Below, one piece after another: positions 1-30,051 of a stretch of 32,524 bases of DNA. Both the position numbers and the translations under genes were made by a program. Under the pieces are notes generated by a model. That model saw nothing but the letters and a program-made list of their open reading frames with translations, was not told the DNA's origin and did no database searches. This DNA comes from Bacteroidota bacterium (GTDB lineage Bacteria > Bacteroidota > Bacteroidia > Cytophagales > MED-G16): NCBI GenBank assembly GCA_036166035.1, contig JAYZHZ010000118.1, positions 1 through 32,524 of the forward strand, in the 5' to 3' direction. Numbering within the stretch: the first letter of the stretch is position 1; every line of letters starts with the position of its first letter.

Positions 1-1350
1 TTTTATTTTATTATAAATTTTAAATATTCTAATTGATTTTTCACCATACACATTATATAGCATTTTAAAATCTTCTGATGAGATACCTAAATCTTTTACT
101 TTATTTAAACATTCATTATAATTAAAATCAAATAATTTTAGATTTTTAGTTTTAGAATTAGGAGAAGAAAATTTGAATTTTTTTACCAGTACATTAATAA
201 CTCTTTCAGCCATTTTTCTATAACCAGTTAGTTTTCCACCTGCAATTGTAATCATGCCATTTTTTGCAATAAAAATTTCATCTTTCCTGGATATTTCAGA
301 TACATTTTTTCTATTCTGTCTTATTAAAGGTCTTAAACCAACCCAAGATGATATAACATCATTTAATTCAAGTTCCACTGAAAAGGCATTATTCACTGAG
401 TCAATCAAATATTTCACCTCTTTTTTTAAAACACATAATTTATCCTTTTCCTTATCAAATACAGTGTCGGTAGTACCTATATAAACAGTCTTTTCTCTCG
501 GTATAGAAAAAATCATTCTACCATCCAAAGCATCAAAATATACTGATTGATTAATAGGAAATTTTTCAATTGGCAAAACAATATGTATTCCTTTTGAGAG
601 AATCAATTTTTTATTTTTACCTTTTATAATATCATCCGTCCATGAACCAGAAGCATTAATTACAGTTTTTGATTTTATTATTAAATTTTTATTTTCAATT
701 TGATCATTACAATTTACACCTGCAATCCTACCATTATCATAGATAAAACTTTTTGCTTTAATATAGTTTATTGGAAGTGCACCAAGATTATATGCTTTCA
801 TTAAAATTTCGATAGTTAATCTGCTATCATCTGTTCTATATTCGGAGTACAATGCCCCGCCTTTAATTTTCTTTTCATTCAAAAGAGGTTCCATAATTAA
901 AGTTTTCTTTTTTGATAACATTTTTTTCTTATCATTATTTTTAACACCTGCTAAATAATCATATAGAAAAAGAGCTAAATAGGTAAAAAATTTATTTAGC
1001 TTTCCATTAATGAAGATCGGGAGTAACATTTTTTCAGATTTAACAAGATGCGGTGCAATACGGTGAAGGACTTCCCTCTCTCTTCCAGTTTCATTAACAA
1101 GTTTTAATTTTAACTGTTCAAGATATCTTAATCCTCCGTGAATAAGTTTAGTTGATTTACTGCTAGTTCCAGAAGCAAAATCATTCATCTCAATAAGACA
1201 AACATTAAGTCCTCTTGAAACAGCATCCAAACATATTCCGGCTCCTGTTATTCCACCACCAATTACTACAATATCAAAATAATTAGAAGAAATTTTATCT
1301 ATTAACTTTCGTCTATTTTTAGATGAAAAAAAATTTATTTTTCTAGCCAA
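1..1350 (-). CDS. glpD: FAD-dependent glycerol-3-phosphate dehydrogenase/oxidase (3' end outside window)
   Basis: Not in the ORF track; I translated the 5' part by hand. TTG at 1350-1348 gives MARKINFFSSKNRRKLIDKISSNYFDIVVIGGGITGAGICLDAVSRGLNVCLIEMNDFASGTSSKSTKLIHGGLRYLEQ, with the GxGxxG FAD motif and the GlpD signature GTSSxSTKLIHGGLRYL. An in-frame TAA lies just upstream (1374-1372), so TTG is the likely start. It overlaps the glpK end by 16 nt. Confidence 0.93.
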   Translation of the reverse strand, partial: MARKINFFSSKNRRKLIDKISSNYFDIVVIGGGITGAGICLDAVSRGLNVCLIEMNDFASGTSSKSTKLIHGGLRYLEQLKLKLVNETGREREVLHRIAPHLVKSEKMLLPIFINGKLNKFFTYLALFLYDYLAGVKNNDKKKMLSKKKTLIMEPLLNEKKIKGGALYSEYRTDDSRLTIEILMKAYNLGALPINYIKAKSFIYDNGRIAGVNCNDQIENKNLIIKSKTVINASGSWTDDIIKGKNKKLILSKGIHIVLPIEKFPINQSVYFDALDGRMIFSIPREKTVYIGTTDTVFDKEKDKLCVLKKEVKYLIDSVNNAFSVELELNDVISSWVGLRPLIRQNRKNVSEISRKDEIFIAKNGMITIAGGKLTGYRKMAERVINVLVKKFKFSSPNSKTKNLKLFDFNYNECLNKVKDLGISSEDFKMLYNVYGEKSIRIFKIYNKIK

Positions 1351-2816
1351 TTCAGAGTTCTTTTTACAGCTTTATTCCAGCCATTATATATTTTTTTTCT
1401 TTTATTATCATCTATTCCTGAATTGAATACTTTATCTATTTTTTGATTTGAAATAATTTTTTCTTTGTCCCAAATAGAACTGGTGATCCCTGCTAAGTAA
1501 CCAGCACCCATTGCTGTTGTCTCAATTACCTGGGGTCTAACAACATCACAATTAAGAATATTACTTTGAAATTGCATCAGATAATTATTCATACAAGCTC
1601 CACCATCCACCTTAAGAGATTTGAGCTTAATTTGTGAATCTTTTTCCATAACATCAATTATATCTTTTGTCTGATAAGCTAATGATTCCAGAGCTGCTTT
1701 AACTATATGATTTTTACCCGTATCTCTAGTCAAACCAAAAATAGCACCTCTAGAATACATGTCCCAGTAAGGGGCACCCAGACCAGCAAAAGCAGGAACA
1801 ACATACACATTTTCTAAATCAGGTATTGATGTTGCTATTTTTTCTGTTTCTGAAGCACTATCGATTATTTTTAGAGAATCTCTTAGCCATTGAATCGCAG
1901 CACCCGCAATAAAGACACTACCTTCCAAAGCATAAGAAATTGAGTTGTCTGAAGAACATGCAATTGTTGTTATTAATCCATTTTTTGAAAATTTAATATT
2001 TTTTCCTGTATTCATTAATAAGAAACATCCTGTCCCATATGTGTTTTTTACCATACCATCATCAAAGCATGCCTGACCAAATAAAGCAGATTGTTGATCC
2101 CCAGCAACTCCATTAATAGGAATTCTAACTCCTTTATAATGGAAATTGCCAAAACTTGAAGAAGAAAATAAAACTTTTGGCAATATTGATCTTGGAATAT
2201 TTAGATAATCAAGTATTTTTTTATCCCAATCAAGATTTTTTATATTAAATATCATTGTCCTAGAAGCATTTGTATAGTCAGTAACATGACTTTTAAATGA
2301 AGAAAAGTTATATATTAACCATGAATCAATTGTACCAGCCATCACATTATTATTTTTAATTTTATTTTTTACTCCTTCAACATTTTCTATTATCCATTTA
2401 ATCTTTGTTGCCGAAAAATATGAGTCAACAACCAAGCCAGTATTTTTCTTTATATATTCCTCTAATCCATCTTCTTTTATTTTTTCACAAATATCTGAAG
2501 TCCTCTTATCTTGCCATACTATAGCATTATAAAGTGGTTTTCCAGTATCCTTTTCCCATAAAACAGTAGTCTCTCTTTGATTTGTAATACCTATACTTAT
2601 AATATTTTTTGGGTCTATATTATTTGATAATAATAACTTTTCAAAAACCTCATATTGTGAACTTAAAATTTCGGAAGGATCATGTTCTACCCATCCCTGT
2701 TTTGGAAAAATTTGAGTAAATTCTTTCTGCTTTATATCAACCAATTTACCATTTTTATCAATTAAAATCGCTCTAGAACTTGTTGTTCCCTGGTCAAGTG
2801 CTATTAAATATTTCAT
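1335..2816 (-). CDS. glpK: Glycerol kinase
   Basis: 493 aa with FGGY/GlpK motifs ALDQGTTSSRA, GWVEHDP, GITNQRETT, YNAIVWQD, YFSATKIKW, TDYTNASRT, GDQQSALFGQ, KNTYGTGCF, VPAFAGLGAPYW and DGGA; adjacent to glpD. Confidence 0.97.
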   Translation of the reverse strand: MKYLIALDQGTTSSRAILIDKNGKLVDIKQKEFTQIFPKQGWVEHDPSEILSSQYEVFEKLLLSNNIDPKNIISIGITNQRETTVLWEKDTGKPLYNAIVWQDKRTSDICEKIKEDGLEEYIKKNTGLVVDSYFSATKIKWIIENVEGVKNKIKNNNVMAGTIDSWLIYNFSSFKSHVTDYTNASRTMIFNIKNLDWDKKILDYLNIPRSILPKVLFSSSSFGNFHYKGVRIPINGVAGDQQSALFGQACFDDGMVKNTYGTGCFLLMNTGKNIKFSKNGLITTIACSSDNSISYALEGSVFIAGAAIQWLRDSLKIIDSASETEKIATSIPDLENVYVVPAFAGLGAPYWDMYSRGAIFGLTRDTGKNHIVKAALESLAYQTKDIIDVMEKDSQIKLKSLKVDGGACMNNYLMQFQSNILNCDVVRPQVIETTAMGAGYLAGITSSIWDKEKIISNQKIDKVFNSGIDDNKRKKIYNGWNKAVKRTLNWLEK

Positions 2817-2820
2817 ATTA

Positions 2821-4173
2821 CTATTTTTTAGAAATTATATTTTGAGTTAAATCAAGATTTTCTATAACAAAATTTCCAACTTTATCTCCTTGATCAACTC
2901 CATATGTTATGGCCGGCATATAATGAATTCCACCCCATATTCTACTTATTGCTGCCTCATCAGAAGCTTGAATAAATGAATCAAATTTTCTTGCTTTGAG
3001 ACCATAAATTTCTTCAGTAGTATCTAAAAATTCAAAGTTATTTCCTAACAAAAAAGTAAGAATATTAGCTGCTGATCTTGAAATTACAGAGTGTCCTGAT
3101 GTGTATTCAGGAAAAGGTGGAGTCTGAAGCAAAGGGATCCAGTCTTCATCAATGTATTGATTAATTAACGTCTCAGGTCTTACAAGTATGCTTCTCCATT
3201 TTTCATCCCAACATACAATAAAGGCATCAAATAAACCTATTGATACCATAGAATAAGTATGGATTGTTTCCATCAAATTTAACTCTGCTTTTTTTGAAGC
3301 AATCTTTGTTATTCCTATCCAATGACCACCAGGAGTTATTTTTTTTGTTGCAAACATTGCATGCCCTCTATGATGAGAAACATATGGATTACAGTCCCAG
3401 AAACTTGCAACATCTTTTTGTTCTTCAGTTAAATTATTACCAATCTCATATACTTCAATAAGATCTTTATAGAATTTTGAAGTTTTGTCAAGACTAAATT
3501 TAGGTGGTGGAGTAATTATAAATTGATTTGAAGAATCTATTACTAATGTTCTTATTTTATTCCAGTGAGGTTCGATTCCTTCCATATAATCTGGAGGGGT
3601 TGGTTTCCAAGATTCTTCGTCATCCCTTTGAATTGTATATTTTGGAAACGATCTTGTCTGCTTATAATTGTCTTCATTATACCATTTTTTAATGTGATTG
3701 GCAACCTCATCACCATAAGCTATTGAACGATCATATATATCTTTAGGAATACCTTTTTCTTTTAATTTTTTAAAAATATCTTTTTGAAACTCATTGATTT
3801 TATTTTCAGAAAAAATCAAATCTTTTCCAATAGTAATAAATGCATGCAAACTAGCAACTGGAAATGAATACTCCTTATTCAAATCAGGTTTTGGAACAGC
3901 ATTTAATCCATTAAGCTGGCCAGCAAAACTTTTATATTTTGGATAATCATTAATTAAAACTTCATAAGCAGCAATAGTTGGATAAACATAAATTCTTGAT
4001 GCTACTGGTGGCGAAAAAATATCATATACAATAACATCTGTTAATTTTTGCATTGATTCATGAAAAAGATTAGGATCTTCGTATGCATTTAAATTATTCT
4101 TATATTCTTCATATGAAGAACATGAAGAAAAAAAGAAAAAAATTAATAAAAACTGAAAGATTTTAATGTTCAT
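2821..4173 (-). CDS. Vanadium-dependent haloperoxidase (PAP2 superfamily), lipoprotein; flavobacterial iodoperoxidase-like
   Basis: Complete vanadate/phosphate-binding motif set: CWDEKWRSILVRP (K..RP), TPPFPEYTSGHS (SGH) and SRIWGGIHY (R..H). The FWDCNPY..FATKKITPGGHW segment is typical of Bacteroidota VHPOs and, from memory, resembles Zobellia galactanivorans VIPO1. Lipobox FFSSC. ATG at 4173 is preferred over the track's TTG at 4176. Confidence 0.88.
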   Translation of the reverse strand: MNIKIFQFLLIFFFFSSCSSYEEYKNNLNAYEDPNLFHESMQKLTDVIVYDIFSPPVASRIYVYPTIAAYEVLINDYPKYKSFAGQLNGLNAVPKPDLNKEYSFPVASLHAFITIGKDLIFSENKINEFQKDIFKKLKEKGIPKDIYDRSIAYGDEVANHIKKWYNEDNYKQTRSFPKYTIQRDDEESWKPTPPDYMEGIEPHWNKIRTLVIDSSNQFIITPPPKFSLDKTSKFYKDLIEVYEIGNNLTEEQKDVASFWDCNPYVSHHRGHAMFATKKITPGGHWIGITKIASKKAELNLMETIHTYSMVSIGLFDAFIVCWDEKWRSILVRPETLINQYIDEDWIPLLQTPPFPEYTSGHSVISRSAANILTFLLGNNFEFLDTTEEIYGLKARKFDSFIQASDEAAISRIWGGIHYMPAITYGVDQGDKVGNFVIENLDLTQNIISKK

Positions 4174-7100
4174 CAACCAAACTTATTATGGAAAGTCTAT
4201 CGTCATTTTTTCCAAGAACAAATTTAGATTTATTTTTATCCAAAGGCAAAACTTTAGTAATATCACCCCTTATTTTTAATCCTGATTTTGCCTGATTTAT
4301 ATAATTAAAAGTGGCATTACCATTACCATTTAATAAAATCCCGTAGCTGGAATCGAATGATCCAAAATAAGTTGAAACACTTGAAAGATTTCCAAATAAT
4401 AATATATCCAAAATATTATCATTATTATAGTCTAATACTTGAATATCTCTAACCGGCGAAATCTGACTAATTAATGGTAACTCTTTTACTGAGAATGATT
4501 CTCCATCATTTATAAATAATATAGAGCTAAATTCATTGGTAAATAAAACTTTATTTTTTGATAATATTTCCTCTGAAAAAATTTCATTAATATCTAGGCC
4601 TGCAAAATCTCTGTAATAAAAGAAATCTCGATTTAAATAATTTAATTGTTTGGTTAACTCATCTTTATTTGAAACTGGAAACTCTTTGGAACCCTTTTTG
4701 TAAGTTATAATATGTTCAATATTCGAATTATTATCAAAATCACCAACATACATTTTTATAGGATTTTCATTCGTTGGTTTAAGTTTTGAATTATTACCAA
4801 TGTTTCCTGCAATAATATCCATTAACCCATCATTATTAAAATCTGCTGTTTCTATTGAGAACCACCAACCAAATTTTTTATTGCCTATAAAATCAGTATC
4901 CTCACGTAATTTACCATTCTCATTAATTAAAATTTTTATATTATTCCAATCTCCACATGTAATCAAATCTTTAATTCCATCCCCATTCATATCTTCCCAC
5001 TTTGCATCGGTAATCATCCCGAAATTCTTCAGAATGTTATTATTATCGATTTTGAAGGAACCATCACCATTGTTAGTTAAAAGATAACTTACTGGAGAAT
5101 AACCATATTCACCCGGAACTACTCTTCCTCCCACAAATAAATCTTGATCACCATCCTGATCATAATCATAATTTATTACAACCGAACCATGTTGATAAAT
5201 TTCAGGTAACCCTTTTCTATTTATAAATTTTCCTTTCTCATTAATGTATAATCTATCTTGAATGCTTTTGACATTTAGAGGATATTCATTCCCTGCACTG
5301 ACAACATAGAGATCTTTATCACCATCATTGTCAGCATCAAAAAACAATGCATCAACATCTTCAGATAAATAATCATTCTCTATTTCATTTTGAGGAAGGT
5401 ACTTATAATTTCCAGAATTCTCACCCAAAAATAATTTTGATTTTTGAAAAGACGGAGAACCAATATAAACATCTAAAATATTATCATCATTTATATCTGA
5501 TACAGCTATTGCGGGTCCTTCTCTTGATAGCATAAATGGAATTAGTCCTTCCCTGTTGAAATCATTAAATGAGTTTTCTTTATGAGAATAATTTATCTTA
5601 ATCATATCAGAGATATCAGAAAAAATCGGATTTGAAATATTTTTTTTCTGAAATACTTTATCTGATGCTTTCTCATACAAATCAATCTTTTGATTAGCCT
5701 TTATTGAATATATCTTTTGTGTTTTTAGAGAAGGCCAAATAACCTGCAATGAATCTATTTCTTCTGTAGTACCAATCCCAAAATTTAGACCAGAAGATTT
5801 AGTAGACATAAAACCCCTATTTAAAAAATTTTCCTTATAAATAACATTATTATCAAACCAAATTATAACTTTTGCTCCAATCCCAAAATAATTATACTTT
5901 TCACCTTTAAATGAAATTTTTAAATGATTATTATTTAACATATCTTTTGTTTTGTTCTTATAGAGAATTGCTTGATCATTTATATTATTTAATATAAAAT
6001 CTTGATCTCCATCGTTGTCAAAATCATCGTATGTTGCTCCATTAGAATACCCATTAAAATCTAAGCCCCATTCCTTAGATACGTTCTTAAAATTTAAATT
6101 TGACAAATTTTTAAATGCATAATTTTTTACTTTACCATCGGGCATTTCTTTTAACAGATCTTGATTATCTAAATCAGGATTCTGGACAAGACCATAATTT
6201 AATTTTTCGTTGGATATAAAGTTGATATAATCCATATCATTCGGTCTTTTTACAATGCCATTTGTTATATATATATCCTTATAACTATCTAAATCAAAGT
6301 CTTCAACCAAAGTCGACCAACTCCAATCTGTAGCATGAATATCCATGAGTTGTGATATTTCTGAGAAAGAATTATTTCCATTATTTAATTGAAAAGTATT
6401 TCTAGTAAACTGTTTATTAAAACCAAATTCAAGTTTCAGTTTATAAATTTCATACGAATCTTCTCCTGCTGAACTCTTCAAAACTTTCTCATCCTCTGGG
6501 AGCATATCCAAAACTAAAATATCAGGATATAAATCATTATTAATATCTGAAATATCATTACCCATTGAAAATCTTGAAGTATGATTTATATAATTTTCTA
6601 AACTTTCTTTAAAGGTTCCGTTACAATTGTTAATATATAAATAATCATTTTCTCTAAAATCATTTGATACATAAATATCATCGCAGCCATCCCTATTTAT
6701 ATCACTAATCGAAATACCCAAACCATAGCCTATGTTGCTGCCCAAAATACCAGCCTCTTCAGATACATCAACAAAAAATTGTTTTCCTTCACTCATTTCA
6801 TTTCTAAAAAGTTTATCACCAGACTTCTCATTTCTTGAAAATCTCAATTTATAATTTCCGTAACTTCTTTCAGTATGCACTGAATGATTTAAAAGATAGA
6901 TATCTAAGTCACCATCACCATCATAATCAAAAAAGGCAGAATGAGTGGAAAAACCTTCAAAATCAAGACCATATTCTTCAGCTCTTTCGGTAAAAGTAAG
7001 ATCACCATTGTTAATAAATAATTGGTTTTTTCCTGAAATATTTTTATAACCGCCAAGTCTAGTTTGGTATATATCTATAAAACCATCTCCATTTATATCA

Positions 7101-7435
7101 ACCATATTAACTCCAGTTTTCCATTCTTCTTCTGAATTTAATCCTGCTTTTTCAGTAATATCAGTAAAATTGAGATCTCCCTTATTTAAATATAACTTAT
7201 TGGCCCCTTGATTAGATGAAAAATATATATCAATAAGACCATCATTATTTATATCACCTGTTGTGACTCCACCACCATTATAGAAGTATAGGTACTCTAT
7301 TAAATTAAACTTTTCATTTTCAACTAAATCATTTCTAAATCTAATATTTGAAGTGTTTTCAGAAACTTTTTCAAACAAAGTATTTTCTTCTTTACACGAA
7401 AAAATTAAAAGAATTATTAAAAATCTATTTATCAT
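4163..7435 (-). CDS. FG-GAP/VCBS-repeat + ASPIC/UnbV-domain lipoprotein (CRTAC1-like), paralog 1
   Basis: Many DxN/DxDGxxD Ca-binding blades (GDINNDGLIDIYF, DYDGDGDLDIY). Family motifs YFYNGGG, SMGND, DMLP and TDWSW; central UnbV-type segment GIGAKVII..RGFMS..LNFGIG..SLQVIWP. Lipobox IFSC followed by KEE. ATG at 7435 overlaps the upstream stop (TGATG). Confidence 0.88.
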   Translation of the reverse strand: MINRFLIILLIFSCKEENTLFEKVSENTSNIRFRNDLVENEKFNLIEYLYFYNGGGVTTGDINNDGLIDIYFSSNQGANKLYLNKGDLNFTDITEKAGLNSEEEWKTGVNMVDINGDGFIDIYQTRLGGYKNISGKNQLFINNGDLTFTERAEEYGLDFEGFSTHSAFFDYDGDGDLDIYLLNHSVHTERSYGNYKLRFSRNEKSGDKLFRNEMSEGKQFFVDVSEEAGILGSNIGYGLGISISDINRDGCDDIYVSNDFRENDYLYINNCNGTFKESLENYINHTSRFSMGNDISDINNDLYPDILVLDMLPEDEKVLKSSAGEDSYEIYKLKLEFGFNKQFTRNTFQLNNGNNSFSEISQLMDIHATDWSWSTLVEDFDLDSYKDIYITNGIVKRPNDMDYINFISNEKLNYGLVQNPDLDNQDLLKEMPDGKVKNYAFKNLSNLNFKNVSKEWGLDFNGYSNGATYDDFDNDGDQDFILNNINDQAILYKNKTKDMLNNNHLKISFKGEKYNYFGIGAKVIIWFDNNVIYKENFLNRGFMSTKSSGLNFGIGTTEEIDSLQVIWPSLKTQKIYSIKANQKIDLYEKASDKVFQKKNISNPIFSDISDMIKINYSHKENSFNDFNREGLIPFMLSREGPAIAVSDINDDNILDVYIGSPSFQKSKLFLGENSGNYKYLPQNEIENDYLSEDVDALFFDADNDGDKDLYVVSAGNEYPLNVKSIQDRLYINEKGKFINRKGLPEIYQHGSVVINYDYDQDGDQDLFVGGRVVPGEYGYSPVSYLLTNNGDGSFKIDNNNILKNFGMITDAKWEDMNGDGIKDLITCGDWNNIKILINENGKLREDTDFIGNKKFGWWFSIETADFNNDGLMDIIAGNIGNNSKLKPTNENPIKMYVGDFDNNSNIEHIITYKKGSKEFPVSNKDELTKQLNYLNRDFFYYRDFAGLDINEIFSEEILSKNKVLFTNEFSSILFINDGESFSVKELPLISQISPVRDIQVLDYNNDNILDILLFGNLSSVSTYFGSFDSSYGILLNGNGNATFNYINQAKSGLKIRGDITKVLPLDKNKSKFVLGKNDDRLSIISLVDEH

Positions 7436-14617: not shown

Positions 14618-14652
14618 AAAAAAAAGCAAGCGAAAAATATCGCTTGCCTTTT
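14617..14652 (-). terminator. Rho-independent terminator after the susD at 14680-16239
   Basis: Stem GCAAGCGA (14626-14633) / TCGCTTGC (14640-14647) with a 6-nt loop. The A9 run at 14617-14625 gives a U-tract on the minus strand. Confidence 0.85.
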
Positions 14653-19202: not shown

Positions 19203-19244
19203 ATTTTACTTTTTAAATAGTTTAGTTTAAAATTTAACTTAATT

Positions 19245-19252
19245 CAAAATTA
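19245..19252 (-). promoter_or_regulatory. Putative -7 promoter element (TAATTTTG) upstream of susC pair A
   Basis: Exact TAnnTTTG match 42 nt upstream of the ATG at 19202, with CTTG 17 nt further upstream. The AT-rich context makes a chance match possible. Confidence 0.35.
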
Positions 19253-19467
19253 AATTATTGAAAGTCCAACAAGTTATCCTATAAAAACAGCTATAGAAAC
19301 ATAGCCTAAAATACTAGTTTGGTCGTCGACAACAATATAATTAGTTAACTGCAACAAATTTGCATTAAATTAATTAGAATGGAAAAAAATTAACAAAAAA
19401 TATATTGGTTTATTTTTTATTTATACCAATTGAGTTTTTATAAAGTAATAGAAAAGAAACATCTAAT

Positions 19468-19498
19468 AAAAAAAGCAGGACAAAAATTGCCCTGCTTT
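19468..19498 (-). terminator. Rho-independent terminator after the susD at 19524-21218
   Basis: Minus strand reads AAAGCAGGGCAA-TTT-TTGTCCTGCTTTTTTT. The single stem mismatch is a G-U wobble only on the minus strand, and a U7 tail follows. Confidence 0.85.
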
Positions 19499-19523
19499 AA
19501 TTTATTTAAGTAACCTAAGTAAT

Positions 19524-21218: not shown

Positions 21219-21230
21219 ATTTCTTATTTT

Positions 21231-24200
21231 TTAAAATGTAACATTTAATCCTAAAGTAGTAACAACTGCTTGAGGATATTCTCCCGAATCAACACCTAAA
21301 TTAAGTGGCGAACCACCCACTTCAGGATCCATTCCTGAGTAACCGCTTAAGGTAAGTAGGTTATTTCCAGAGACATAAATTCTCGCATTTGAAATACCTA
21401 ATTTACTAGTAGCACTACTTGGAAGTGTATATCCAATCTGAATTGTTCTTAACTTAACGTAAGAAGCATCCTCAACAAACCATGAGTTAGGTTGAGTTTC
21501 AGCATTAGAAATAGTTTCACTCAATGCAGGCATATCTGTATCAGTATTTGATGAAGTCCATGAATCTAACACATCTGCATGCCTATTTCCATTAAAGAAA
21601 GTAGGGAAATGTGAATAAATTTTATTGTAATGGTATACATCATTACCGATAGAACCATTTAAGAATGCGTATAAGTCAAAGTTATTATAAGCTAAACTTA
21701 CACTAAAACCAAATGTGAAATCAGGATGAGGAGAACCAATCTCAGTTCTATCATCATCATTGATTGTACCATCGCCATTAACATCCTCGTATTCAAACCT
21801 TCCACTAGAATCAAGTCCTTTAACTTTACGTCCGTAAAAATAAGACATAGACTTTCCAGGACTAGTTCTTGTTATTGCTCCACCTCTATATCCTGTACTT
21901 CCTAAGAAGAAGTTACTAATAAGACTATCAACAGTATTATTGTATTTAGATAAATTAAATCCTATATCATAACTAAAATCACCTGAAGCATCAGCATAAT
22001 TCAATGCTAACTCAATACCAGAGTTTGTTACCTGCCCAATATTAACTAGAGGAGCAGAAGCATCAATTGCAGTAGTTCCAATAAGGTTGTTATCAACAGC
22101 AATTAAGTCATTGGTCTGAATGTTAAAATAATCTAAAGAACCATACAACTTATTATTTAGCAGTCTAAAATCAAGACCTAAATTTTGAGAAACTACAGTC
22201 TCCCATTTTAGATCAGGATTACCAACAGCAGATAATGCAGCACCTGTAGTTGCATTTGATCCATTAAATGGATAATATGCATTTGCCTCACTTAAACTTG
22301 AAACGTTTTGGTCAGGAGCAGTTCTTCCTAGTGATTGATTTCCTAGAGTACCATAAGAAACTCTCAATTTCATATAATTATCTGAATTAAAGAAATCTTC
22401 CTCACTAATAACCCATCCAAAACTTCCGGAAGGGAAAATTGCGTTCGCATTTGCCCTAGCAAATCTTGAAGTATTGTCTTGCCTTACTGTAGCAGTAACA
22501 AGATACTTATCCGAGTAAGCATAGTTTACAGTCAAGAATGCTGAATTAATTGTATAAGCATTTTGTGAAGCCCACTGAACAACTGGCGTACCAGCACCAT
22601 TACTCAGTAAATAGAAATTTGGATCTTCAAAAAGATACTCATTTCTAGAGACCTCATGACCTTTAAAATTTTTCTTTAAAGCCTCGTAACCTAACAATGC
22701 ATCAACACTATGTGAGCCAAAATCAGCTCTATAGTTAAGAGTGTTTGTTACGTTCCAGTTATACTCTCTGAAGCTTTGTTCATACAAAGTATTAACAGAC
22801 TTTGGTTCACTGTGTTCAGGATCTAGATAAGCAAACCTCCTATTATTAAGATCTCTCATCATACCTGCCGCAACAATTTTATAATCAAGTCCTTCTACAA
22901 TATTTATGTTTGCATAAACATCACCAAAAGCTCTAAAGGATCTATTATAATTATTTTCTGATCTCATAAGATTAGCGTACGGACTATTCATATTTCCAAG
23001 TCCCGCTGAAGCCTTATAAGTACCAGCATAATTACCATTATCGTCCAAAAGAGGAATAAGAGGACTAGATCTATATGCTCCTTGAACTTGATTCCCCTGA
23101 TTTTCTTGATCATAAGAAACGTTCAAATGTTCTCCAATTGTGATTCTATCATTCACTCTGAATTCACCATTCATCCTTGTTCTTCCAGTCTTATATCCAG
23201 TCATAATTTGAGCTCCTTGTCTGTCAAGATATTCCATCGACATTAAGAACTTGCTATCTGAACTACCACTAGAAACTGTTACCTTATATTGCTGTGCTAA
23301 ACCAGGATCAAAAATAGCATCCATCCAATCCGTTCCATTTGGATTTACAGTAGCCCCAACATCTATTCCCTGTAATTTACTAGGAATAACAGGACTTCCA
23401 CCAGAACCATATTGTGGATGATTTGGAGTTGCTCCATCATTTAACTTAGACTGCCAAATCATATCTCCATGCTGTTGAGCATTTAAAAGAGTTGGAAGAT
23501 TTGTAGCATAAGTTGACCCAACGTAAGTTTCAAAAGTGACTGTGTTTTTTTGACCATAACTACCATTCTTAGTAGTAATCACGATAACACCATTAGAAGC
23601 CCTTGCACCATAAATTGCTGCAGAACCATCTTTTAGAACATTAATTTGTTCTATATCGGAAGGACTTATACTTGATAAAACATACGGATCATCAGTTTGA
23701 ACACCATCAATTATATACAGTGGGTTATTATCATTTGGAGTAGCATAGCCTCTGATTCTAACAACTGGTGCTGAACCTGGTTGACCGTTTCCAATGACTG
23801 ATATACCAGTTACCCTACCTTGAAGTAATTCAGCTGAATTCACAACAGGAGTTTTAACTGCACTGCCAATGTCTACTGAAGAAATTGCTCCAGAAAGACT
23901 TTTTCTAGTTTGTGTTTGATAACCCGAAACAACAATTTCATCCAAAAATTCTGTGCTCTCAGATAAGGTAATAACTACTCTTGCCTGAGATCCAACTGAA
24001 ACTGTCTGTGTCTCATACCCAACAAAACTAACTTCTAACTGATCATCAGACGAAGCACTTATTGAAAAGTTTCCATCTATGTCAGTTACTGTACCATTTG
24101 TAGTACCTGCAACTATAACACTAGCTCCAGGTATAGGATTTCCACCTTCATCTTGAACTGTTCCACTAACATCTCTTTGAGAGAATGCAACCGAAACAAC

Positions 24201-24239
24201 AAGAAATAGGATGGAAAACAAAGTAATAAGTTTTTTCAT
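21231..24239 (-). CDS. SusC/RagA family TonB-dependent transporter (pair B)
   Basis: Start moved to ATG 24239 (MKKLITLFSILFLVVSVAFSQ is a clean signal peptide) instead of the track's 24284. Motifs LDEIVVSGYQ, NPLYIIDGV, DIEQINVLKDGSAAIYGARASNGVIVITTK, NPDLKWET and C-terminal LGLNVTF. Confidence 0.96.
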   Translation of the reverse strand: MKKLITLFSILFLVVSVAFSQRDVSGTVQDEGGNPIPGASVIVAGTTNGTVTDIDGNFSISASSDDQLEVSFVGYETQTVSVGSQARVVITLSESTEFLDEIVVSGYQTQTRKSLSGAISSVDIGSAVKTPVVNSAELLQGRVTGISVIGNGQPGSAPVVRIRGYATPNDNNPLYIIDGVQTDDPYVLSSISPSDIEQINVLKDGSAAIYGARASNGVIVITTKNGSYGQKNTVTFETYVGSTYATNLPTLLNAQQHGDMIWQSKLNDGATPNHPQYGSGGSPVIPSKLQGIDVGATVNPNGTDWMDAIFDPGLAQQYKVTVSSGSSDSKFLMSMEYLDRQGAQIMTGYKTGRTRMNGEFRVNDRITIGEHLNVSYDQENQGNQVQGAYRSSPLIPLLDDNGNYAGTYKASAGLGNMNSPYANLMRSENNYNRSFRAFGDVYANINIVEGLDYKIVAAGMMRDLNNRRFAYLDPEHSEPKSVNTLYEQSFREYNWNVTNTLNYRADFGSHSVDALLGYEALKKNFKGHEVSRNEYLFEDPNFYLLSNGAGTPVVQWASQNAYTINSAFLTVNYAYSDKYLVTATVRQDNTSRFARANANAIFPSGSFGWVISEEDFFNSDNYMKLRVSYGTLGNQSLGRTAPDQNVSSLSEANAYYPFNGSNATTGAALSAVGNPDLKWETVVSQNLGLDFRLLNNKLYGSLDYFNIQTNDLIAVDNNLIGTTAIDASAPLVNIGQVTNSGIELALNYADASGDFSYDIGFNLSKYNNTVDSLISNFFLGSTGYRGGAITRTSPGKSMSYFYGRKVKGLDSSGRFEYEDVNGDGTINDDDRTEIGSPHPDFTFGFSVSLAYNNFDLYAFLNGSIGNDVYHYNKIYSHFPTFFNGNRHADVLDSWTSSNTDTDMPALSETISNAETQPNSWFVEDASYVKLRTIQIGYTLPSSATSKLGISNARIYVSGNNLLTLSGYSGMDPEVGGSPLNLGVDSGEYPQAVVTTLGLNVTF

Positions 24240-24377
24240 TTTATACTTTAGTTTACTTAAAATAATGAGGAGAAACATGTCCATTCAGTACTCCCCTCAT
24301 ACTGATAAAGTATTTAAATAATACTTGCGGACCCCTAAATTTATAGAAATGTTAACAGAATGAAAAATGATTCCTAT

Positions 24378-27300
24378 TTAAAAATCAAACCTTACAATAC
24401 GCGTAGGTTTATTTGAACTATATACTTGGATGCTATCTATAGTTTCATTCAATAAGATTTTTCTTGAAGATTGAGATAAAAATGAGTTGCCATGGTAAAA
24501 TTCTTTTCTATACATTTTACCATTCTCATAAACATCAGCAATATTTTCATCCGGTTCTAACGCAACAGAAAACTTTTTATCATGATTAACTTTATAGGAT
24601 ATCAATTTGTCCTTATTCTGACCAACCAGTATTATATAGTTATCTTCAGATACCAATAATGCAGAAGATTTTGAGTCCCCAGGAACATAGAAACCAGAGT
24701 TATTAATTTCAATAGGTTTAAAAAATTCACTGTTTCCAAGAAGTACTAAGCCATTTAATGCATCATATCTTCCCATTCCTATCTCTGAACCATAATCATT
24801 GCCTACTAATGCAATATCATCAAAACCGTCACCATTAAAATCTTCAATTATTGATCCATATATTTTAGAGATCTGGGCTTCATCGGGTAAATCAATAATC
24901 TTAAATTTACCATCTCCAAGATTTTCAATATAAACGGAGGAAAAATAATTTACTTTAAATTTAGATACCTGAGAATTGTTTAGATTCATTTGTTGAATAA
25001 GTTGTTTAAAAGTGACCCTACCAAAATCTTCATGAAGAATATACTTTCCTCTTATATCTATAACTTCTTTCTGGAATTCATGTCTAGTAAAAAATGGATA
25101 CAGCTTATAATTACCTTTCTCATCTTTAAAATATGCTGAGGGAAAGAAATCTTTAAATTTATTACCATCAAAATCGGAAGAATAAACTAAGATTTCATTG
25201 CTTTCATAATTCAGCAAGGTATTTTTTCCAATATTTCCAACTATATAATCAATGTCTCCATCTTTATCAAAATCAGAACCATTAATACTATTCCAAAAAC
25301 CAAAATAATTTTCAATTCCATTTTTTTCAACCTCCTCAAATACATTACCATTATTCCTAAATATTCTTATTTGCATGTACTCTCCTACAACAATCAAATC
25401 TGATTTATTATCATTATCAAAATCAGTCCATATCGCATCAGAAACTAATCCTATAGAATTCAGCTGAGGAGCAACCTTATCATTAACTATTAAAAATTTA
25501 TTCTCACCTTTGTCCAATTGATTCTGAAGTATAAAACTGGTGGCCGGTGTTGGATAATCTTGAGGAACTAATCTACCACACACAAACAGATCTAAATCAC
25601 CATCATTATCATAGTCACTAGCTTTTACACATGATCCACTACTTAAAAAATTTGGAATTATGCCTTCCGATAAAACAAAATTACCACCATCATTTATAAA
25701 TAATTTATCGGTATATGAAATATGCATTGAATCAAATTCATTACCTCCACTTACAATGTATAAATCATTATCCGAGTCGTTATCAAAATCAAAGAGTAAT
25801 ACCCCCAATTCTTCTGAAGAAAATGTCAAATCTGAATCACTAAATAATTTCTGTTCATTGAATGATCCATCCTTTTCCTGAATAAAAAAGGTTCCCGAAT
25901 AATTTCGTGATCCACTAATGTAAAAATCATCTAGCTCATCTCCATTAATATCTTGAACTGAAATTCCTGGACCAAACTGAGATAGTTTATGATATAACAA
26001 AGGCTGGTAATTAAAATCTATAAAATCTAGTTCTTTATGATTATATGGAATATTGATTTCAGAAAACAACTTCAATGGTCTGTCATCAGTTTTAGATTTA
26101 TAATTTATATTCTCATCATATACTAATTCAATAGATGTATTTACCTGTAAAGAAAGGTGTTTATTTTTATGTCCATCAGGCCAGTGAATTATAAGGCTAT
26201 CTATAGATTTTGAGTCAGATAAACCAAAATGAATAATATTTTGCATAGAGGACAAATACCCTCTGAAAGGATTGTTTTCATAGAACTTGTATTTCCCTTC
26301 AGAAAATAATTCAACTGTTGCACCTATTGCATTTATATTATTCTCTTTTCCAACTAATTTTATTTTTATCCAATTATTCTCATTGAACTTCTCTGAATTA
26401 TTTTTAAAAACATTTGCTTCTCCATCAATATTATTTACTATATAATCCAAATCCCCATCATTATCTAAATCTCCATGAGCCGCACCATTTGAGAATGTAG
26501 GTTTAGTTATTCCCCATTTTTCAGTTACATCTTCAAACAACACAATTCCATTATCTTCAGAAATATTTCTAAAAGCATAATTTTTTAATTTGACTTCAGG
26601 AATAATCGATAGAAGCGTCTCTTTTTTAGTAAATCTTGCTATCTGAGTTTGGTAGTCAATAAAATCCCTATCCGTAATATCTTTTGGAAAACCATTTGTA
26701 ATTATTAAATCATTAAAACCGTCATTATCATAATCACCAACAATTGGAGCCCAGCTCCAATCCGTTCCACTCACTCCAGACATCATTGCTATCTCAGAGT
26801 ATATTGGTTTATCATTAACAAATCCTTGATTTTGTTGCAAGGTATTTCGAACAAATTGATAAGCATATTTGTATCTATCATTATTTATATATGTATTATA
26901 ATTATTCTCAGTAAGCATAGTTTTCCTCCTGAAATTATCATCCGGCATCATATCAAGTTCAATTACTTCATTTAATCCATCGTTATTAAAATCAATAATA
27001 TTATTACCCATTGATGAATAAGAAGTATGCTTAAAATATTCAGATGACTTATCCGTAAATGTTCCATCTTTATTATTTATCCACAAAAGATCGTTTGTTA
27101 AATAATCATTTGACACAAATATGTCTTTCCAACCATCTTGATTCAGATCAGATACACATACTCCCAAACCAAAACCTTCAATTAAAATGCCTGCCTCCTT
27201 AGTCACATCAGTAAAATATGGATGACCCAATTCTTTAATAAAATCATTTCTTAAAAGTTTATCATTCTTAGGAGATGTTCCATCCACAACTTTTTTTCTG

Positions 27301-27908
27301 TACTGATTAGGTTGTTTATACTTGTCCATTTCATTTATTAGAAGGTAAACATCTAAGTCTCCATCATTATCATAATCAAAAAAACTTGCGTTAATGTTAT
27401 GAGAGGAATCATCTAGCCCATATTCAACCGCCATTTCTTTAAAAACAGGAATTCCTTCACTATTAACCCCTAGATTAATATACAAAAGATTGGATCTTAA
27501 CTTTTCAGGATTATACGTTGAACATGATATGTATATATCTATCAATCCATCTTGATTTATATCAATTATTGAAACTCCTGATGACCATCTTCCATTTCCT
27601 CCAATATTTGCTATTTGAGATATTTCATTAAATTTCCAGTTTCCTTCATTTAAATACATTTTATTTCCTACCATATTTCCGGTAAAAAATATGTCCTGCT
27701 TTCCATCATTGTTAAAATCTGCAATAGCAGCACCTCCACCATTATAGAGATATTCATAATCAAGAATATTCATCGAATCATTTTCTGAAATTAAATTATT
27801 AAAATAAATCCCTGTATGTGATGATTCCATCTCTTCAAATAATGCTTTATCCGTACAACAGAAAAAGAGAATACTGATAAGTAAAAAATTTAATTTGTTA
27901 TAAATCAT
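24378..27908 (-). CDS. FG-GAP/VCBS-repeat + ASPIC/UnbV-domain lipoprotein, paralog 4 (with C-terminal extension)
   Basis: 1176 aa, lipobox LFFCC. Motifs YLYNGGG, SMGNN, DMMP, QFVRNTLQ, TDWSW and AIGATV..PFRGYLSS..IIHFGL..DSLIIHWPDG. The start overlaps the galE stop (ATGA). Confidence 0.88.
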   Translation of the reverse strand: MIYNKLNFLLISILFFCCTDKALFEEMESSHTGIYFNNLISENDSMNILDYEYLYNGGGAAIADFNNDGKQDIFFTGNMVGNKMYLNEGNWKFNEISQIANIGGNGRWSSGVSIIDINQDGLIDIYISCSTYNPEKLRSNLLYINLGVNSEGIPVFKEMAVEYGLDDSSHNINASFFDYDNDGDLDVYLLINEMDKYKQPNQYRKKVVDGTSPKNDKLLRNDFIKELGHPYFTDVTKEAGILIEGFGLGVCVSDLNQDGWKDIFVSNDYLTNDLLWINNKDGTFTDKSSEYFKHTSYSSMGNNIIDFNNDGLNEVIELDMMPDDNFRRKTMLTENNYNTYINNDRYKYAYQFVRNTLQQNQGFVNDKPIYSEIAMMSGVSGTDWSWAPIVGDYDNDGFNDLIITNGFPKDITDRDFIDYQTQIARFTKKETLLSIIPEVKLKNYAFRNISEDNGIVLFEDVTEKWGITKPTFSNGAAHGDLDNDGDLDYIVNNIDGEANVFKNNSEKFNENNWIKIKLVGKENNINAIGATVELFSEGKYKFYENNPFRGYLSSMQNIIHFGLSDSKSIDSLIIHWPDGHKNKHLSLQVNTSIELVYDENINYKSKTDDRPLKLFSEINIPYNHKELDFIDFNYQPLLYHKLSQFGPGISVQDINGDELDDFYISGSRNYSGTFFIQEKDGSFNEQKLFSDSDLTFSSEELGVLLFDFDNDSDNDLYIVSGGNEFDSMHISYTDKLFINDGGNFVLSEGIIPNFLSSGSCVKASDYDNDGDLDLFVCGRLVPQDYPTPATSFILQNQLDKGENKFLIVNDKVAPQLNSIGLVSDAIWTDFDNDNKSDLIVVGEYMQIRIFRNNGNVFEEVEKNGIENYFGFWNSINGSDFDKDGDIDYIVGNIGKNTLLNYESNEILVYSSDFDGNKFKDFFPSAYFKDEKGNYKLYPFFTRHEFQKEVIDIRGKYILHEDFGRVTFKQLIQQMNLNNSQVSKFKVNYFSSVYIENLGDGKFKIIDLPDEAQISKIYGSIIEDFNGDGFDDIALVGNDYGSEIGMGRYDALNGLVLLGNSEFFKPIEINNSGFYVPGDSKSSALLVSEDNYIILVGQNKDKLISYKVNHDKKFSVALEPDENIADVYENGKMYRKEFYHGNSFLSQSSRKILLNETIDSIQVYSSNKPTRIVRFDF

Positions 27909-28936
27909 TTAATCTTTTTATTGATAGAAGTCTCCCAGTTCCAAGCCGAGCGCATCATATCATCCAAACTTTTTTTTGAAGACCAATTTAATGCCTTTTT
28001 TGATAGTTTATTATCTGAAAATATTTTTTCTATATCACCCTCTCTTCTTTCTGAAAAAACATAATTTAATTTTATATTATTAACCTTTTCAAATGAGCTA
28101 ATCACATCCATAACAGAATATCCTTTACCAGTTCCAACATTATAATATTCATAAGGATTTTCATTTTTCAAATATAAAATCCTTTCTAGGGCAGCTATAT
28201 GTGCTTTACTAAGATCCTCAATGTGGATATAGTCTCTTACTGCTGTTCCATCATGGGTATGATAGTCATCACCAAACACAACTAATCTATCTCTAATCCC
28301 TGCTGCTGTCTGAGTAATAAAAGGAACCAAATTATCAGGCATACCCTTAGGCAATTCCCCAATCAATGCTGAAGAATGAGCACCAACTGGATTGAAATAT
28401 CTAAGTGAAATAGCAGAAATATTATTGTTTGAATTTGTAAATTTTTCTAAAATTTTTTCTGAGATCTGTTTAGTTTCAGCATATGGTGATTCTGCTTTCT
28501 TAAAAGGAGCTGACTCATCAACAGGCAGCTTATTAGGTTGTCCATATACTACACATGATGATGAGAAGACGATGTTTCTAACACTATGAGTTTTCATTGA
28601 CTCCAATATATTCTCTAAAGATTTAATGTTATTATTATGATATTCCAATGGCTTCTTTACAGATTCACTCACAGATTTGAGTGCTGCAAAGTGAATAACA
28701 GCGTCAAAATTGTTTTCTTTAAAACAATTTTGAGTTTATTTTCTTTCTGTCAGATCAAACTCATAAAATTTTGGTCTTGTGCCCGTTATTTTTTCAATTC
28801 GATCTAAAATAAACCTCTCTGAATTGGAAAGGTTATCTACTATTATTACTTGAAATCCCTTATTAATCAGTTCCACTGTTGTATGAGAACCTATATAACC
28901 AAGTCCTCCTGTAACTAAAATCTTATTTTTTTTCAT
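27905..28936 (-). pseudogene. galE: UDP-glucose 4-epimerase interrupted by one in-frame TAA at 28736-28738 (nonsense allele or sequencing error)
   Basis: Track ORFs 28736..28936 and 27905..28672 are in the same frame. Read-through gives [15 protein letters not shown]...FDLTERK*TQNCFKENNFDAVIHFAALKSVSESVKKPLEY...FSSSCVVYG...SPYAETK...LRYFNPVGAH...RDYIHIEDL, a full-length 343-codon GalE with the GxxGxxG and YxxxK motifs intact. Confidence 0.9.
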
Positions 28937-30051
28937 ATTTCAGAACATGTTATTCCATCACTAATTTCTGTAACTATGGGTGATAAATGTATCGAAAATT
29001 TATTGTAATACTCTTTCGATACTAAATCAATATAAGAATCAATAAAATCGGAGTGAATTAAGTTAATAGTGCACCCTCCAAATCCTCCACCCATCATTCT
29101 AGATCCCAACACATGTTCATAATTTTTTGATATATCAACCATAAAATCAAGGTGTTGACAACTTACTTCATACAATTCCTTTAATCCATAATGTGACTCA
29201 TACATCAACATCCCAAATTCTTTAAATTTTGATTCTTTAATTTTTTTCACAGAGTTGACTACCCTTTCATGCTCTTGAATAACAAATTGTGCACGATTAA
29301 ATACTATCTCATCCATAGTTCCTTTAAATTCGTTTAAAATTTTTAAAGAAACATCACACAAATAATTTACCTTTTTATATCTTGATTTGATTTCGTTCAA
29401 TGCAGATCTACACTCACCAACTCTCATATTATATAAACTATCTGACAGCTTATGTTCTATGTTAGTATTCAAAAGAAGAAATTTATATCTTCCGAAATCT
29501 GAATCAATAAAATCAAAACTTCTATTCTTACAATCAATCAATAAAACCTTATTTTTCTTCCCATTAAGAATAGTGGACTGATCCATTATTCCTCCAGTTA
29601 ATCCAATAAAATTATGTTCTACTTCTCTTGCTATATCAATTATATCATTATTTGTTAAATTGAGATTATTAAGTTTATCTAAACCCTTTATAAATCCACA
29701 TATAAGTGATGAAGATGAACTTATTCCAGCTCCTATTGGCAAGTCACCATCAATTAAACACTTGAACCCATTTATTAACAATTTTCTTTTTTTTATGAGG
29801 TTTTTAAGAACACCTATGATATAATTTTCCCAATGAGTCTCACTCTTTTCTAAAGAGTTTATGTTAATTATAAAAGATTTGTCAATTGTTTTAGATTGTA
29901 TATAACATTTAACCCCTTGAATAGATTCTAGCTGAAAAATGATTTTATTTTTTATGGCTGCAGGAAGCACTTTACCTCCGTTATAATCAATGTGTTCCCC
30001 TATAAGATTTATCCTTCCAGGTGATTCAACTAAAACTTTTTTTTGGATCAT
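28933..30051 (-). CDS. galK: Galactokinase (GHMP kinase)
   Basis: [13 protein letters not shown] galactose-binding signature, [13 protein letters not shown] motif, GIMDQ, YEVSC and [16 protein letters not shown] overlap with galE. Confidence 0.94.

Follow-up and report, generated by a model that had tools for sequence, protein, structure and literature searches.

Two tandem SusC/SusD modules with propeller and haloperoxidase lipoproteins, followed by glycerol genes, in a marine Cytophagales bacterium

Gene content and junctions of the locus

The 32,524-nucleotide stretch analyzed here (the window) is the whole of contig JAYZHZ010000118.1, one of 167 contigs in a 1.29-Mb, 65% complete assembly (GCA_036166035.1) of a Bacteroidota bacterium from the Cytophagales lineage MED-G16. 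Its center is a transport locus with two adjacent susC/susD pairs (modules A and B), four genes for giant FG-GAP/UnbV propeller lipoproteins resembling CRTAC1 (FG1 to FG4) and a gene for a PAP2/haloperoxidase-like lipoprotein. The galactose genes galK and galE lie upstream and the glycerol genes glpK and glpD downstream (Table 1). All open reading frames from 1 to 31229 are on the minus strand and only the GH20 gene diverges on the plus strand; the G+C content of the window is about 25–39%. Gene families were called with Pfam and NCBIfam. Both SusC proteins score above the TIGR04056 cut-off and both SusD proteins contain PF07980, which identifies the pairs as Sus-like. The co-located carbohydrate-active enzymes (CAZymes) of a polysaccharide utilization locus (PUL) are missing: Pfam revealed no CAZyme at 1–30051, leaving the divergent GH20 as the sole glycoside hydrolase of the window, and no regulator gene anywhere in the window. 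A lipoprotein signal with its cysteine is present in the four propellers, the 189-aa protein, the haloperoxidase and both SusD proteins, suggesting that these lipoproteins may be exposed on the cell surface; both SnoaL-like proteins carry such a signal too.

Table 1 Features of the window, listed from the GH20 end to the glycerol genes.
Feature	Position	Strand	Evidence and remarks
GH20 beta-hexosaminidase, runs off the window	31367..32524	+	Pfam PF00728, 2.2e-63; neighbor outside the uptake unit
SnoaL-like lipoprotein B	30672..31229	-	PF12680; signal peptide and Cys
SnoaL-like lipoprotein A	30137..30646	-	PF12680; signal peptide and Cys
Intrinsic terminator between SnoaL-A and galK	30085..30115	-	-14.2 kcal/mol, z -4.66, 0/200 shuffles as good
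galK, galactokinase	28933..30051	-	TIGR00131, 273 bits (cut-off 226.65)
galE, UDP-glucose 4-epimerase, in-frame TAA at 28736-28738	27905..28936	-	Pfam
FG1, CRTAC1-like FG-GAP/UnbV lipoprotein, accessory module A	24378..27908	-	Pfam; lipobox
SusC1, TonB-dependent transporter, module A	21231..24284	-	TIGR04056, 799 bits, above cut-off
SusD1, module A	19524..21218	-	PF07980
Intrinsic terminator after SusD1	19472..19498	-	-16.2 kcal/mol, z -4.70, 0/200 shuffles as good
Promoter-proximal box CAGTTAACTAATTA and palindrome TTGTCGACGA upstream of SusC2, candidate operator	19322..19351	-	conserved in 12/12 family genomes
SusC2, TonB-dependent transporter, core module B	16260..19202	-	TIGR04056, 650 bits, above cut-off
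SusD2, module B	14680..16239	-	PF07980; NF033071 SusD 2.8e-49, below its cut-off
Intrinsic terminator (possibly attenuator) after SusD2	14621..14652	-	-17.9 kcal/mol, z -7.67, 0/200 shuffles as good
FG2, CRTAC1-like double-propeller lipoprotein	11288..14584	-	Pfam; lipoprotein signal
189-aa lipoprotein between first and second propeller genes of module B	10722..11291	-	no Pfam/NCBIfam match
FG3, CRTAC1-like double-propeller lipoprotein	7435..10725	-	AlphaFold model, matches CRTAC1
FG4, CRTAC1-like double-propeller lipoprotein	4163..7438	-	Pfam; lipoprotein signal
PAP2/haloperoxidase-like lipoprotein, Zobellia iodoperoxidase homolog	2821..4176	-	PDB 4CIT/4USZ, E 5.5e-151
glpK, glycerol kinase	1335..2816	-	TIGR01311, 709 bits (cut-off 590)
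glpD, FAD glycerol-3-phosphate dehydrogenase or oxidase, runs off the contig	1..1350	-	PF01266; overlaps glpK by 16 nt

The genes are tightly packed. The galE stop codon TGA and the FG1 start codon ATG share the sequence ATGA at 27905–27908, and galK and galE overlap in the same way at 28933–28936. At the other end the haloperoxidase stop codon TAG is followed by taat and then by the glpK start codon ATG at 2816, a gap of 4 nt. From FG2 to glpD the genes are arranged with overlaps of 4, 4, 4, 14 and 16 nt and a single 4-nt gap, with no terminator inside. A terminator scan of the window found none at the galE–FG1 or the haloperoxidase–glpK junction; the three strong intrinsic terminators on the coding strand, with folds tested against 200 shuffles each, all lie away from these two junctions. 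An earlier note on this DNA, which read the row from galK to glpD as a candidate locus for galactosyl-glycerol utilization, had described the ATGA coupling of galK–galE to the first propeller gene, the 4-nt spacing before glpK and a row on one strand with no terminator at either junction, and the junction sequences, open reading frames and terminator scan bear this out.

Based on the terminator positions, we predict the units galK–SusD1, SusC2–SusD2 and FG2–glpD. Read-through is common after susD and may join the latter two, and the gene packing suggests that module B (SusC2, SusD2, FG2, the 189-aa gene, FG3, FG4 and the haloperoxidase gene) is transcribed together with glpK–glpD. A scan of the window for sigma-70 promoters gave as many matches as expected from shuffled sequence and is uninformative for Bacteroidota.

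The galE gene is interrupted, as the earlier note had suspected, by a single in-frame TAA inside an A-rich run. At this position the orthologs carry lysine (4/5) or serine (1/5), so that one base change explains the stop, which reflects either a nonsense mutation of recent date or an error in the assembly. Recoding was considered and rejected, as this is a single codon at a lysine position in an A-rich run. The galE orthologs are intact and GalE of the relative G005 passes TIGR01179.

Conservation of the glycerol and galactose genes

The family sample comprises 25 genomes from three genera (g1, g2 and g3), with the window organism in g1. The order sample covers 251 Cytophagales genomes, 90 of which encode the haloperoxidase (match threshold E ≤ 1e-60), 76 of these outside the family. 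A class-wide sample of 401 genomes contains 48 haloperoxidase-positive genomes outside the order, in which glpK positions were compared by eye. Finally, the named loci are the best 80 of at least 603 haloperoxidase matches, with 10-kb flanks that mostly do not reach the locus head. Since two of them (L041 and L058) are the same contigs as in genomes G024 and G108, the named-loci and genome sets overlap.

Within the family, glpK lies directly after the haloperoxidase gene in 18/18 genomes that have both, as well as in the window. In G018 the haloperoxidase gene is at a contig end and glpK was not found there, while five genomes show neither gene; in one of these, G016, the locus runs off the contig. 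The window ends inside glpD, and in 4/4 near-complete g1 genomes GlpF is encoded one gene beyond it. As in the window, a propeller gene immediately precedes the haloperoxidase gene in 37 of the 80 named loci. Co-directional glpK/glpD within 10 kb, usually with GlpF, were found in 10 of the 28 propeller-plus-haloperoxidase loci from other Cytophagales with at least 3 kb of downstream sequence, compared with 0 of the 18 named haloperoxidase loci without propellers. In the order sample, glpK is within 5 kb of the haloperoxidase gene in 3/76 genomes outside the family (G167, G108 and G235); in 2 others the distance is about 40 kb. Across families the adjacency survives at only 50–60% protein identity and with differing intervening genes (trehalase, MFS, SSF and GlpF).

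In G011 (87% complete) the divergent GH20 and SnoaL genes, galK and galE are followed directly by the gene for a 157-aa protein that follows glpD in G005. Comparison of the two (L122 at 7800–8800 and L006 of G005 at 1–2400) shows that a 19-kb block from SusC2 to glpD is precisely missing, with galE and the 157-aa gene joined. Most of glpF is gone too, by a second small deletion. Thus, G011 has kept galK–galE without the uptake block and lost glpK–glpD with it.

Overall, the association of glpK–glpD with the core of SusC/D, propellers and haloperoxidase is real and recurs in Cytophagales, and the best explanation is that module B and glpK–glpD form one evolutionary unit. The family adjacency, the contrast between 10/28 and 0/18 elsewhere and the block loss in G011 uphold the claim of the earlier note that the glycerol genes belong to the locus. 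It had proposed to test whether both gene pairs stay linked in independent lineages; the glycerol pair is partly kept with the core outside the family and the galactose pair is not.

GlpK exceeds its cut-off, the glpD product is a GlpD-family flavoprotein and GlpF is found in relatives, so the set corresponds to glpF–glpK–glpD. Because the flavoprotein scores below the cut-off of every NCBIfam GlpD/GlpO model, GlpD and GlpO are not separated. As in the glpFK/glpD systems of model bacteria, GlpK passes the equivalog model and GlpF follows in relatives; unlike in those systems, the glp genes of the window are fused to a Sus-like operon.

The galactose genes show a different distribution. The layout in g1 is GH20 divergent from SnoaL, then galK, galE, SusC2, SusD2, FG2, the 189-aa gene, FG3, FG4, haloperoxidase, glpK and glpD. 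galK–galE heads the locus in g1 and g2 only, immediately preceding the uptake genes in the window, in eight judgeable g1 genomes (G005, G007, G009, G012, G014, G015, G016 and G018) and in both g2 genomes. In g3 (4/4 genomes) the layout is that of g1 without galK–galE, and SusC2 directly follows SnoaL. There galK was found in G020, G022 and G023, each time on another contig, with no galE beside it in the two neighborhoods examined (G020 and G023); in G024 (61% complete) no galK was found. Outside the family, galK is within 5 kb of the haloperoxidase gene in 1/76 order-sample genomes (G086), where it is convergent and beside a paralog, and neither galK nor galE occurs in the 80 named loci, the flanks of which mostly stop short of the locus head. 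The galK of the window is also diverged, with 50–54% identity to other genus copies and 63% to that of G018, in contrast to its haloperoxidase and GlpK, which are 71–80% identical to genus copies.

We searched five genomes of the genus (four with a completeness of at least 94%, and G000 with 65%) for galactose-pathway enzymes and glycosidases. GalT (PF01087, PF02744) was found in 0/5. This is not decisive, because Bacteroides thetaiotaomicron, included as control, likewise gave no match and Bacteroidota may use another enzyme. Of the galactosidase families, GH2, GH27, GH35, GH36 and GH42 were searched and also found in 0/5. GH97 is present as one copy in 4/5 genomes (not in G000), lying on another contig beside sulfatase genes in G005, the single neighborhood inspected, and GH13 as one unlinked 932-aa protein in 4/5; trehalase gave one weak match in 1/5 (G004, 26.1 bits, just above the family cut-off). 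Compared with the Leloir set galK–galT–galE–galM of model bacteria, the GalK of the window and the GalE of G005 pass the equivalog models, while GalT was not found in 5/5 genus genomes and the galE of the window is interrupted. The window thus offers a galactokinase without an intact epimerase or GalT. The Pfam and NCBIfam calls contain neither galT nor a galactosidase, an absence that the earlier note had itself pointed out.

The view that galK–galE is part of the locus did not hold up, as the pair is absent from the g3 locus, kept in G011, located upstream of the candidate SusC2 promoter and linked in 1/76 order-sample genomes. It appears to be a separately anchored, lineage-specific neighbor pair and not a conserved component of the uptake system. 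galK–galE might serve N-acetylgalactosamine or galactose salvage tied to GH20. The former idea would fit the missing GalT as well as the block of GH20, SnoaL, galK and galE kept in G011.

The divergent arrangement of GH20 and SnoaL is kept across the family. As a separate observation, loss of the uptake block does not break up the group of GH20, the SnoaL lipoproteins, galK and galE (window 30137–32524, L003, L007 and L122).

Transporter modules, propellers and haloperoxidase

The nearest solved chain of SusD2 is 3CK7 (E 2.1e-29), which we take to be the starch SusD of B. thetaiotaomicron. SusD1 is closest to 5LX8, 6Z8I and 5T3R (titled 'SusD homolog'; E 3e-60, full length), presumably the levan-binding SusD BT1762 of the pair BT1762/BT1763. 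As in these two systems, the SusC and SusD genes of the window form adjacent pairs. In contrast to them, the window lacks a SusG-like protein, GH13 and GH32 and has propeller lipoproteins where SusE, SusF and SusG would be. Similarity between SusD sequences does not fix the ligand. Module A (FG1, SusC1 and SusD1) is present in 4/25 family genomes (G000, G018, G019 and G021), always directly after galK–galE, and is best explained as an accessory fructoside-type copy inserted upstream of module B.

Upstream of SusC2 there are a promoter-proximal box and a 10-bp palindrome. The box and the palindrome TTGTCGAC(G/A)A are found in 12/12 family genomes, with galE, SnoaL, SusD1 or GH32 upstream. In the window each occurs exactly once, with no exact copy elsewhere and none before galK, FG1 or FG2. 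This conserved, SusC2-specific element suggests that module B has its own regulated start. The palindrome was not found near the glp genes of the 80 named loci, which mostly stop short of the SusC promoter and are uninformative in this respect. G108 has a LacI gene transcribed divergently from SusC. In this genome TGCAAACGTTTTCA is found upstream of SusC and the palindrome CAAACGTTTG between trehalase and glpK, both regions carrying a LacI-like half-palindrome, and SusC and trehalase–glpK are possibly co-regulated by a LacI-type site.

Two further observations concern the modules. SusC2 and SusD2 of the window are 88–89% identical to the g2 copies (L012/L013 of G019 and L125 of G021) and only 64–74% identical to those of their own genus g1, and SusD1 is 85–86% identical across g1 and g2; the transporter part of the locus (window 14680–24284) looks as if it had been exchanged between genera. 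G018 (L001 4326–14380) has galK, galE, FG1, SusC1, SusD1, the haloperoxidase gene and then the contig end. It lacks module B, which could be due to a deletion or an assembly join.

The AlphaFold model of FG3 (pLDDT 86.5, pTM 0.88) finds its best match among PDB structures in murine CRTAC1 (9ETN; Foldseek E 1.8e-24, target TM 0.68). By sequence, the match to CRTAC1 (cartilage acidic protein 1; E 8.9e-8) covers the N-terminal FG-GAP propeller and the UnbV/ASPIC domain. Beyond CRTAC1, Foldseek returned only generic double propellers (DDB1, SF3B3 and GH74; TM <0.3), and the Protein Atlas only unnamed VCBS/UnbV clusters. FG3 shares the FG-GAP propeller and UnbV/ASPIC domain with CRTAC1; the bacterial proteins differ from it in having a second propeller, in being lipoproteins and in occurring as three or four paralogs beside SusC/D. 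We know of no catalytic activity for CRTAC1 or for bacterial CRTAC1-like proteins. The earlier note had sought a missing galactosidase or lipase activity in the propellers. The predicted CRTAC1-like fold of FG3, in which no hydrolase or lipase fold was found, lends no support to a hydrolase and is no evidence against one.

FG1 is 47% identical to a propeller of G028, where an FG1-like propeller, a haloperoxidase paralog and GH32 stand in a row. A second, shorter locus type composed of SusC, SusD, a single propeller of 1140–1180 aa and a haloperoxidase paralog was observed in large Cytophagales genomes (L127 of G086, L130 of G028, L131 of G035 and L132 of G174). Its haloperoxidase is 43–48% identical to that of the window, and FG1 belongs to this short type.

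For the 189-aa lipoprotein we aligned 23 orthologs from Cytophagales, Flavobacteriaceae and Saprospiraceae-labeled loci. Its structure was modeled with a pLDDT of 93.3, and the best match in a structure search was an Rhs immunity protein with a Z-score of 7.9, in the noise range.

The haloperoxidase-like protein is a full-length homolog of 4CIT/4USZ, deposited as vanadium-dependent haloperoxidase and presumably Zg-VIPO1 from Zobellia galactanivorans. Zg-VIPO1 is reported to be an iodoperoxidase and not a phosphatase. In 11/11 aligned sequences the motifs K326-X6-R333-P334, S360-G361-H362 and S411-R412-X5-H418 are invariant, as is the lipobox residue C19. The full-length homology together with the KX6RP, SGH and SRX5H motifs of the vanadate site and of PAP2 proteins places the protein in the Zg-VIPO1 type. 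It differs from Zg-VIPO1 in being a lipoprotein encoded inside a Sus-like operon. Vanadate-dependent, iodide-specific peroxidase activity is a prediction, as the residues by themselves do not tell peroxidases from phosphatases. In the literature 4USZ is named as the Zobellia iodoperoxidase (PMC5064120).

Relatives carry additional enzymes. Pfam analysis of 70 of 132 candidate open reading frames plus 11 further ones revealed, among the tail genes, a GH37 trehalase, two kinds of GH13, a ROK kinase, DUF3179, SSF or MFS transporters, GlpF, GlpK and GlpD. Ahead of the haloperoxidase gene there is sometimes a GH65 or GH97, and in G019 a GH32 lies between SusD1 and SusC2. GH37 and GH13, which would mark a trehalose or alpha-glucoside type, are both missing from the locus in the window.

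A literature search returned no description of this locus type and no paper pairing UnbV with SusD; judged by title, the UnbV papers do not deal with PULs. A PUL catalog of North Sea Flavobacteriia (Kappelmann et al. 2019, PMC6298971) contains similar loci, labeled 'alpha-glucan', 'trehalose' or 'unknown'. Its Table S3 contains PUL62 of Dokdonia ('alpha-glucan', with at least GH13, SusC, SusD and three ASPIC/UnbV proteins), PUL156 of Gramella forsetii ('unknown', with at least two FG-GAP proteins and one vanadium haloperoxidase), PUL345 of Tenacibaculum (at least fructokinase, GH32, GH37, permeases, glycerol uptake facilitator, GH97 and PAP2) and PUL47 of Cellulophaga sp. RHA_19 (PAP2, glycerol kinase, SSS transporter, GH36 alpha-galactosidase, repeat protein, SusD, SusC and GntR). 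According to the catalog, SusC/D of PULs for trehalose-like alpha-1,1-glucan (103/116) were expressed and detected in metaproteomes of North Sea blooms. Substrates were predicted there from CAZymes only, and glycerol is not mentioned in its main text. The window shares with these ASPIC/UnbV–PAP2 PULs the order of SusC/SusD, one to three ASPIC/UnbV repeat proteins and PAP2/haloperoxidase, and two of the entries above have glycerol genes (the kinase of PUL47 and the facilitator of PUL345). The locus in the window differs from them in having no CAZyme or regulator gene, in being doubled by a second module and in its fusion to glpK–glpD.

Candidate substrates and competing explanations

The window is best explained as two tandem Sus-like modules of a widespread, catalogued and functionally unstudied locus family, composed of SusC/SusD, giant CRTAC1-like double-propeller lipoproteins, a small lipoprotein and a lipoprotein homologous to iodoperoxidase. 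With moderate confidence, we propose that the locus scavenges small algal glycosides of the alpha-glucoside or fructoside type, possibly also glycerol glycosides, and is linked in function to glycerol catabolism. SusD and the propeller lipoproteins would capture small glycosides released by algae or cyanobacteria, for which trehalose- or sucrose-type disaccharides and glycerol glycosides (glucosyl- or galactosyl-glycerol) are candidates, and SusC would import them. The glycosides might then be split by an enzyme encoded outside the locus, or by the propellers themselves, and the freed glycerol would enter metabolism via GlpF, GlpK and GlpD. The substrate class, as well as any role for the haloperoxidase, we infer from the gene content, junctions, conservation pattern and homologies described above.

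Several points speak against this proposal. In the class-wide sample, glpK was found within 10 kb on the same contig in 0/48 haloperoxidase-positive genomes outside the order; the glp link is seen only within Cytophagales and could therefore be inherited synteny. Most core loci have no glp genes (18/28 named loci and 73/76 order-sample genomes). A strong terminator separates SusD2 from FG2, and co-transcription is only predicted. The 9-mer shared by the two regions of G108 is weak, since two other 9-mers are common to the same regions, which is at chance level. The locus in the window has no glycosidase and the genus has few (one unlinked GH97 and the 932-aa GH13), so the splitting step lacks an enzyme. 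TonB-dependent SusC/D would be unusual for molecules the size of disaccharides or glycosyl-glycerols. Finally, glycoside scavenging does not explain the four giant propellers and the iodoperoxidase homolog.

The main rival is plain inherited synteny, in which the core serves small alpha-glucosides or fructosides only and the glp operon has been an unrelated neighbor since an early Cytophagales ancestor, pressed against it by streamlining. The restriction of the link to one order, the many core loci without glp genes, the convergent glp genes of G235 and the four opposite-strand genes that intervene before the glp genes in G084-type loci are consistent with this, and a single deletion across neighboring genes would explain G011. 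However, the adjacency is kept between families at low protein identity and with varied genes in between, and it is specific to haloperoxidases that follow propellers. G108 may share a LacI-type site between core and glp genes, and flavobacterial loci have a glycerol kinase or facilitator beside PAP2 (PMC6298971, Table S3). Synteny alone is possible in our view, if rather doubtful.

The galactosyl-glycerol locus of the earlier note would run from galK to glpD, with SusC/D importing floridoside, isofloridoside or deacylated mono- and digalactosyl lipids (MGDG/DGDG), a propeller acting as galactosidase and the products entering through GalK/GalE and GlpK/GlpD. Galactose and glycerol genes do bracket the locus, galE is translationally coupled to FG1, galK–galE lies directly upstream throughout the judgeable g1 and the g2 genomes, module A follows it in 4/4 genomes that have this module, and no other enzyme in the locus could explain a hexose product. 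These arrangements are outweighed by the g3 locus, which lacks the pair in 4/4 genomes and has galK on another contig in 3/4, by G011, which keeps it without the uptake block, and by its rarity near the haloperoxidase gene (1/76 order-sample genomes, none of the 80 named loci with their mostly short flanks). Moreover, SusC2 has its own conserved candidate promoter and palindrome, not found before galK; galE contains a stop; GalT and the five galactosidase families searched were not found in the five genus genomes, leaving no linked galactosidase of these families; alpha-glucosides and fructosides are the substrates suggested by the SusD homologies and by the enzymes of relatives; and the FG3 model has no hydrolase or lipase fold. 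We consider this explanation unlikely. It retains some probability mainly because of the Cellulophaga PUL47, which combines PAP2, glycerol kinase, GH36 and SusC/D (PMC6298971, Table S3) and suggests that a galactosyl-glycerol variant of the locus family may exist elsewhere.

Returning to scavenging of small glycosides, a bolder version would make the propellers the missing enzymes, a surface machinery releasing glycerol and hexose from glucosylglycerol- or floridoside-type algal glycosides. This is a long shot. If true, the system would be pared to a minimum of transporter, propellers, iodoperoxidase homolog and glpK–glpD in an abundant, genome-reduced marine Cytophagales lineage, and no other natural system would offer as clean a test of what the whole CRTAC1/UnbV family does.

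The active site of vanadium haloperoxidases is the same as that of PAP2 acid phosphatases, and all three PAP2 phosphatase motifs are kept in the haloperoxidase-like protein. It could thus be an extracytoplasmic phosphatase acting on a glycerophosphoryl substrate such as teichoic-acid-like polymers or glycerophosphodiesters, with glycerol taken up via GlpF and GlpK. GlpF and GlpK handle free glycerol and GH20 lies next door. Set against this, the closest characterized relative is an iodoperoxidase and not a phosphatase, going by its reported enzymology, no phosphodiesterase was found in the loci examined, and the accessory enzymes of relatives act on neutral alpha-glucosides. A phosphatase locus is therefore very unlikely. 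Least probable of all, and barely credible, is a locus centered on the haloperoxidase, in which GlpO-like or sugar oxidation would supply H2O2 for iodide oxidation at the surface, assisted by calcium-binding propellers: the protein is a close homolog of a structurally solved iodoperoxidase, the family GlpD scores best on the type 1 glycerol-3-phosphate oxidase model (424 bits compared with 310 for GlpD, below cut-off), and Arenibacter C-21 is reported to require glucose, oxygen and calcium to take up iodine, with a membrane oxidase and a haloperoxidase proposed (PMC5064120), but the GlpO match covers the N-terminal FAD part only and is far below the cut-off of 840 bits, GlpD would be cytoplasmic whereas the haloperoxidase is a lipoprotein, and SusC/D and the sugar hydrolases of relatives would be left unexplained.

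For the glycoside-scavenging proposal, the recurrent glycerol genes provide a concrete hypothesis, namely that glycerol glycosides and similar low-molecular-weight exudates of algae are taken up. It would also be relevant to what the CRTAC1/UnbV family does in general. Loci of this family are widespread in Bacteroidota, and no role in uptake is known for the propellers or for the iodoperoxidase homolog. More than 25 kb of the tiny genome is devoted to the locus. Cultured carriers of the locus family include Fulvivirga sp. M361, whose locus has a glp tail, and, in the catalog entries, Cellulophaga sp. RHA_19 with the GH36 variant. One RNA run matched 6% of the words of window 1–10000. Near-identical copies of the same part of the window (sharing 0.91–0.97 of the words sampled) occur in 19 marine metagenome runs belonging to about 11 studies, which suggests that the organism is common in seawater.

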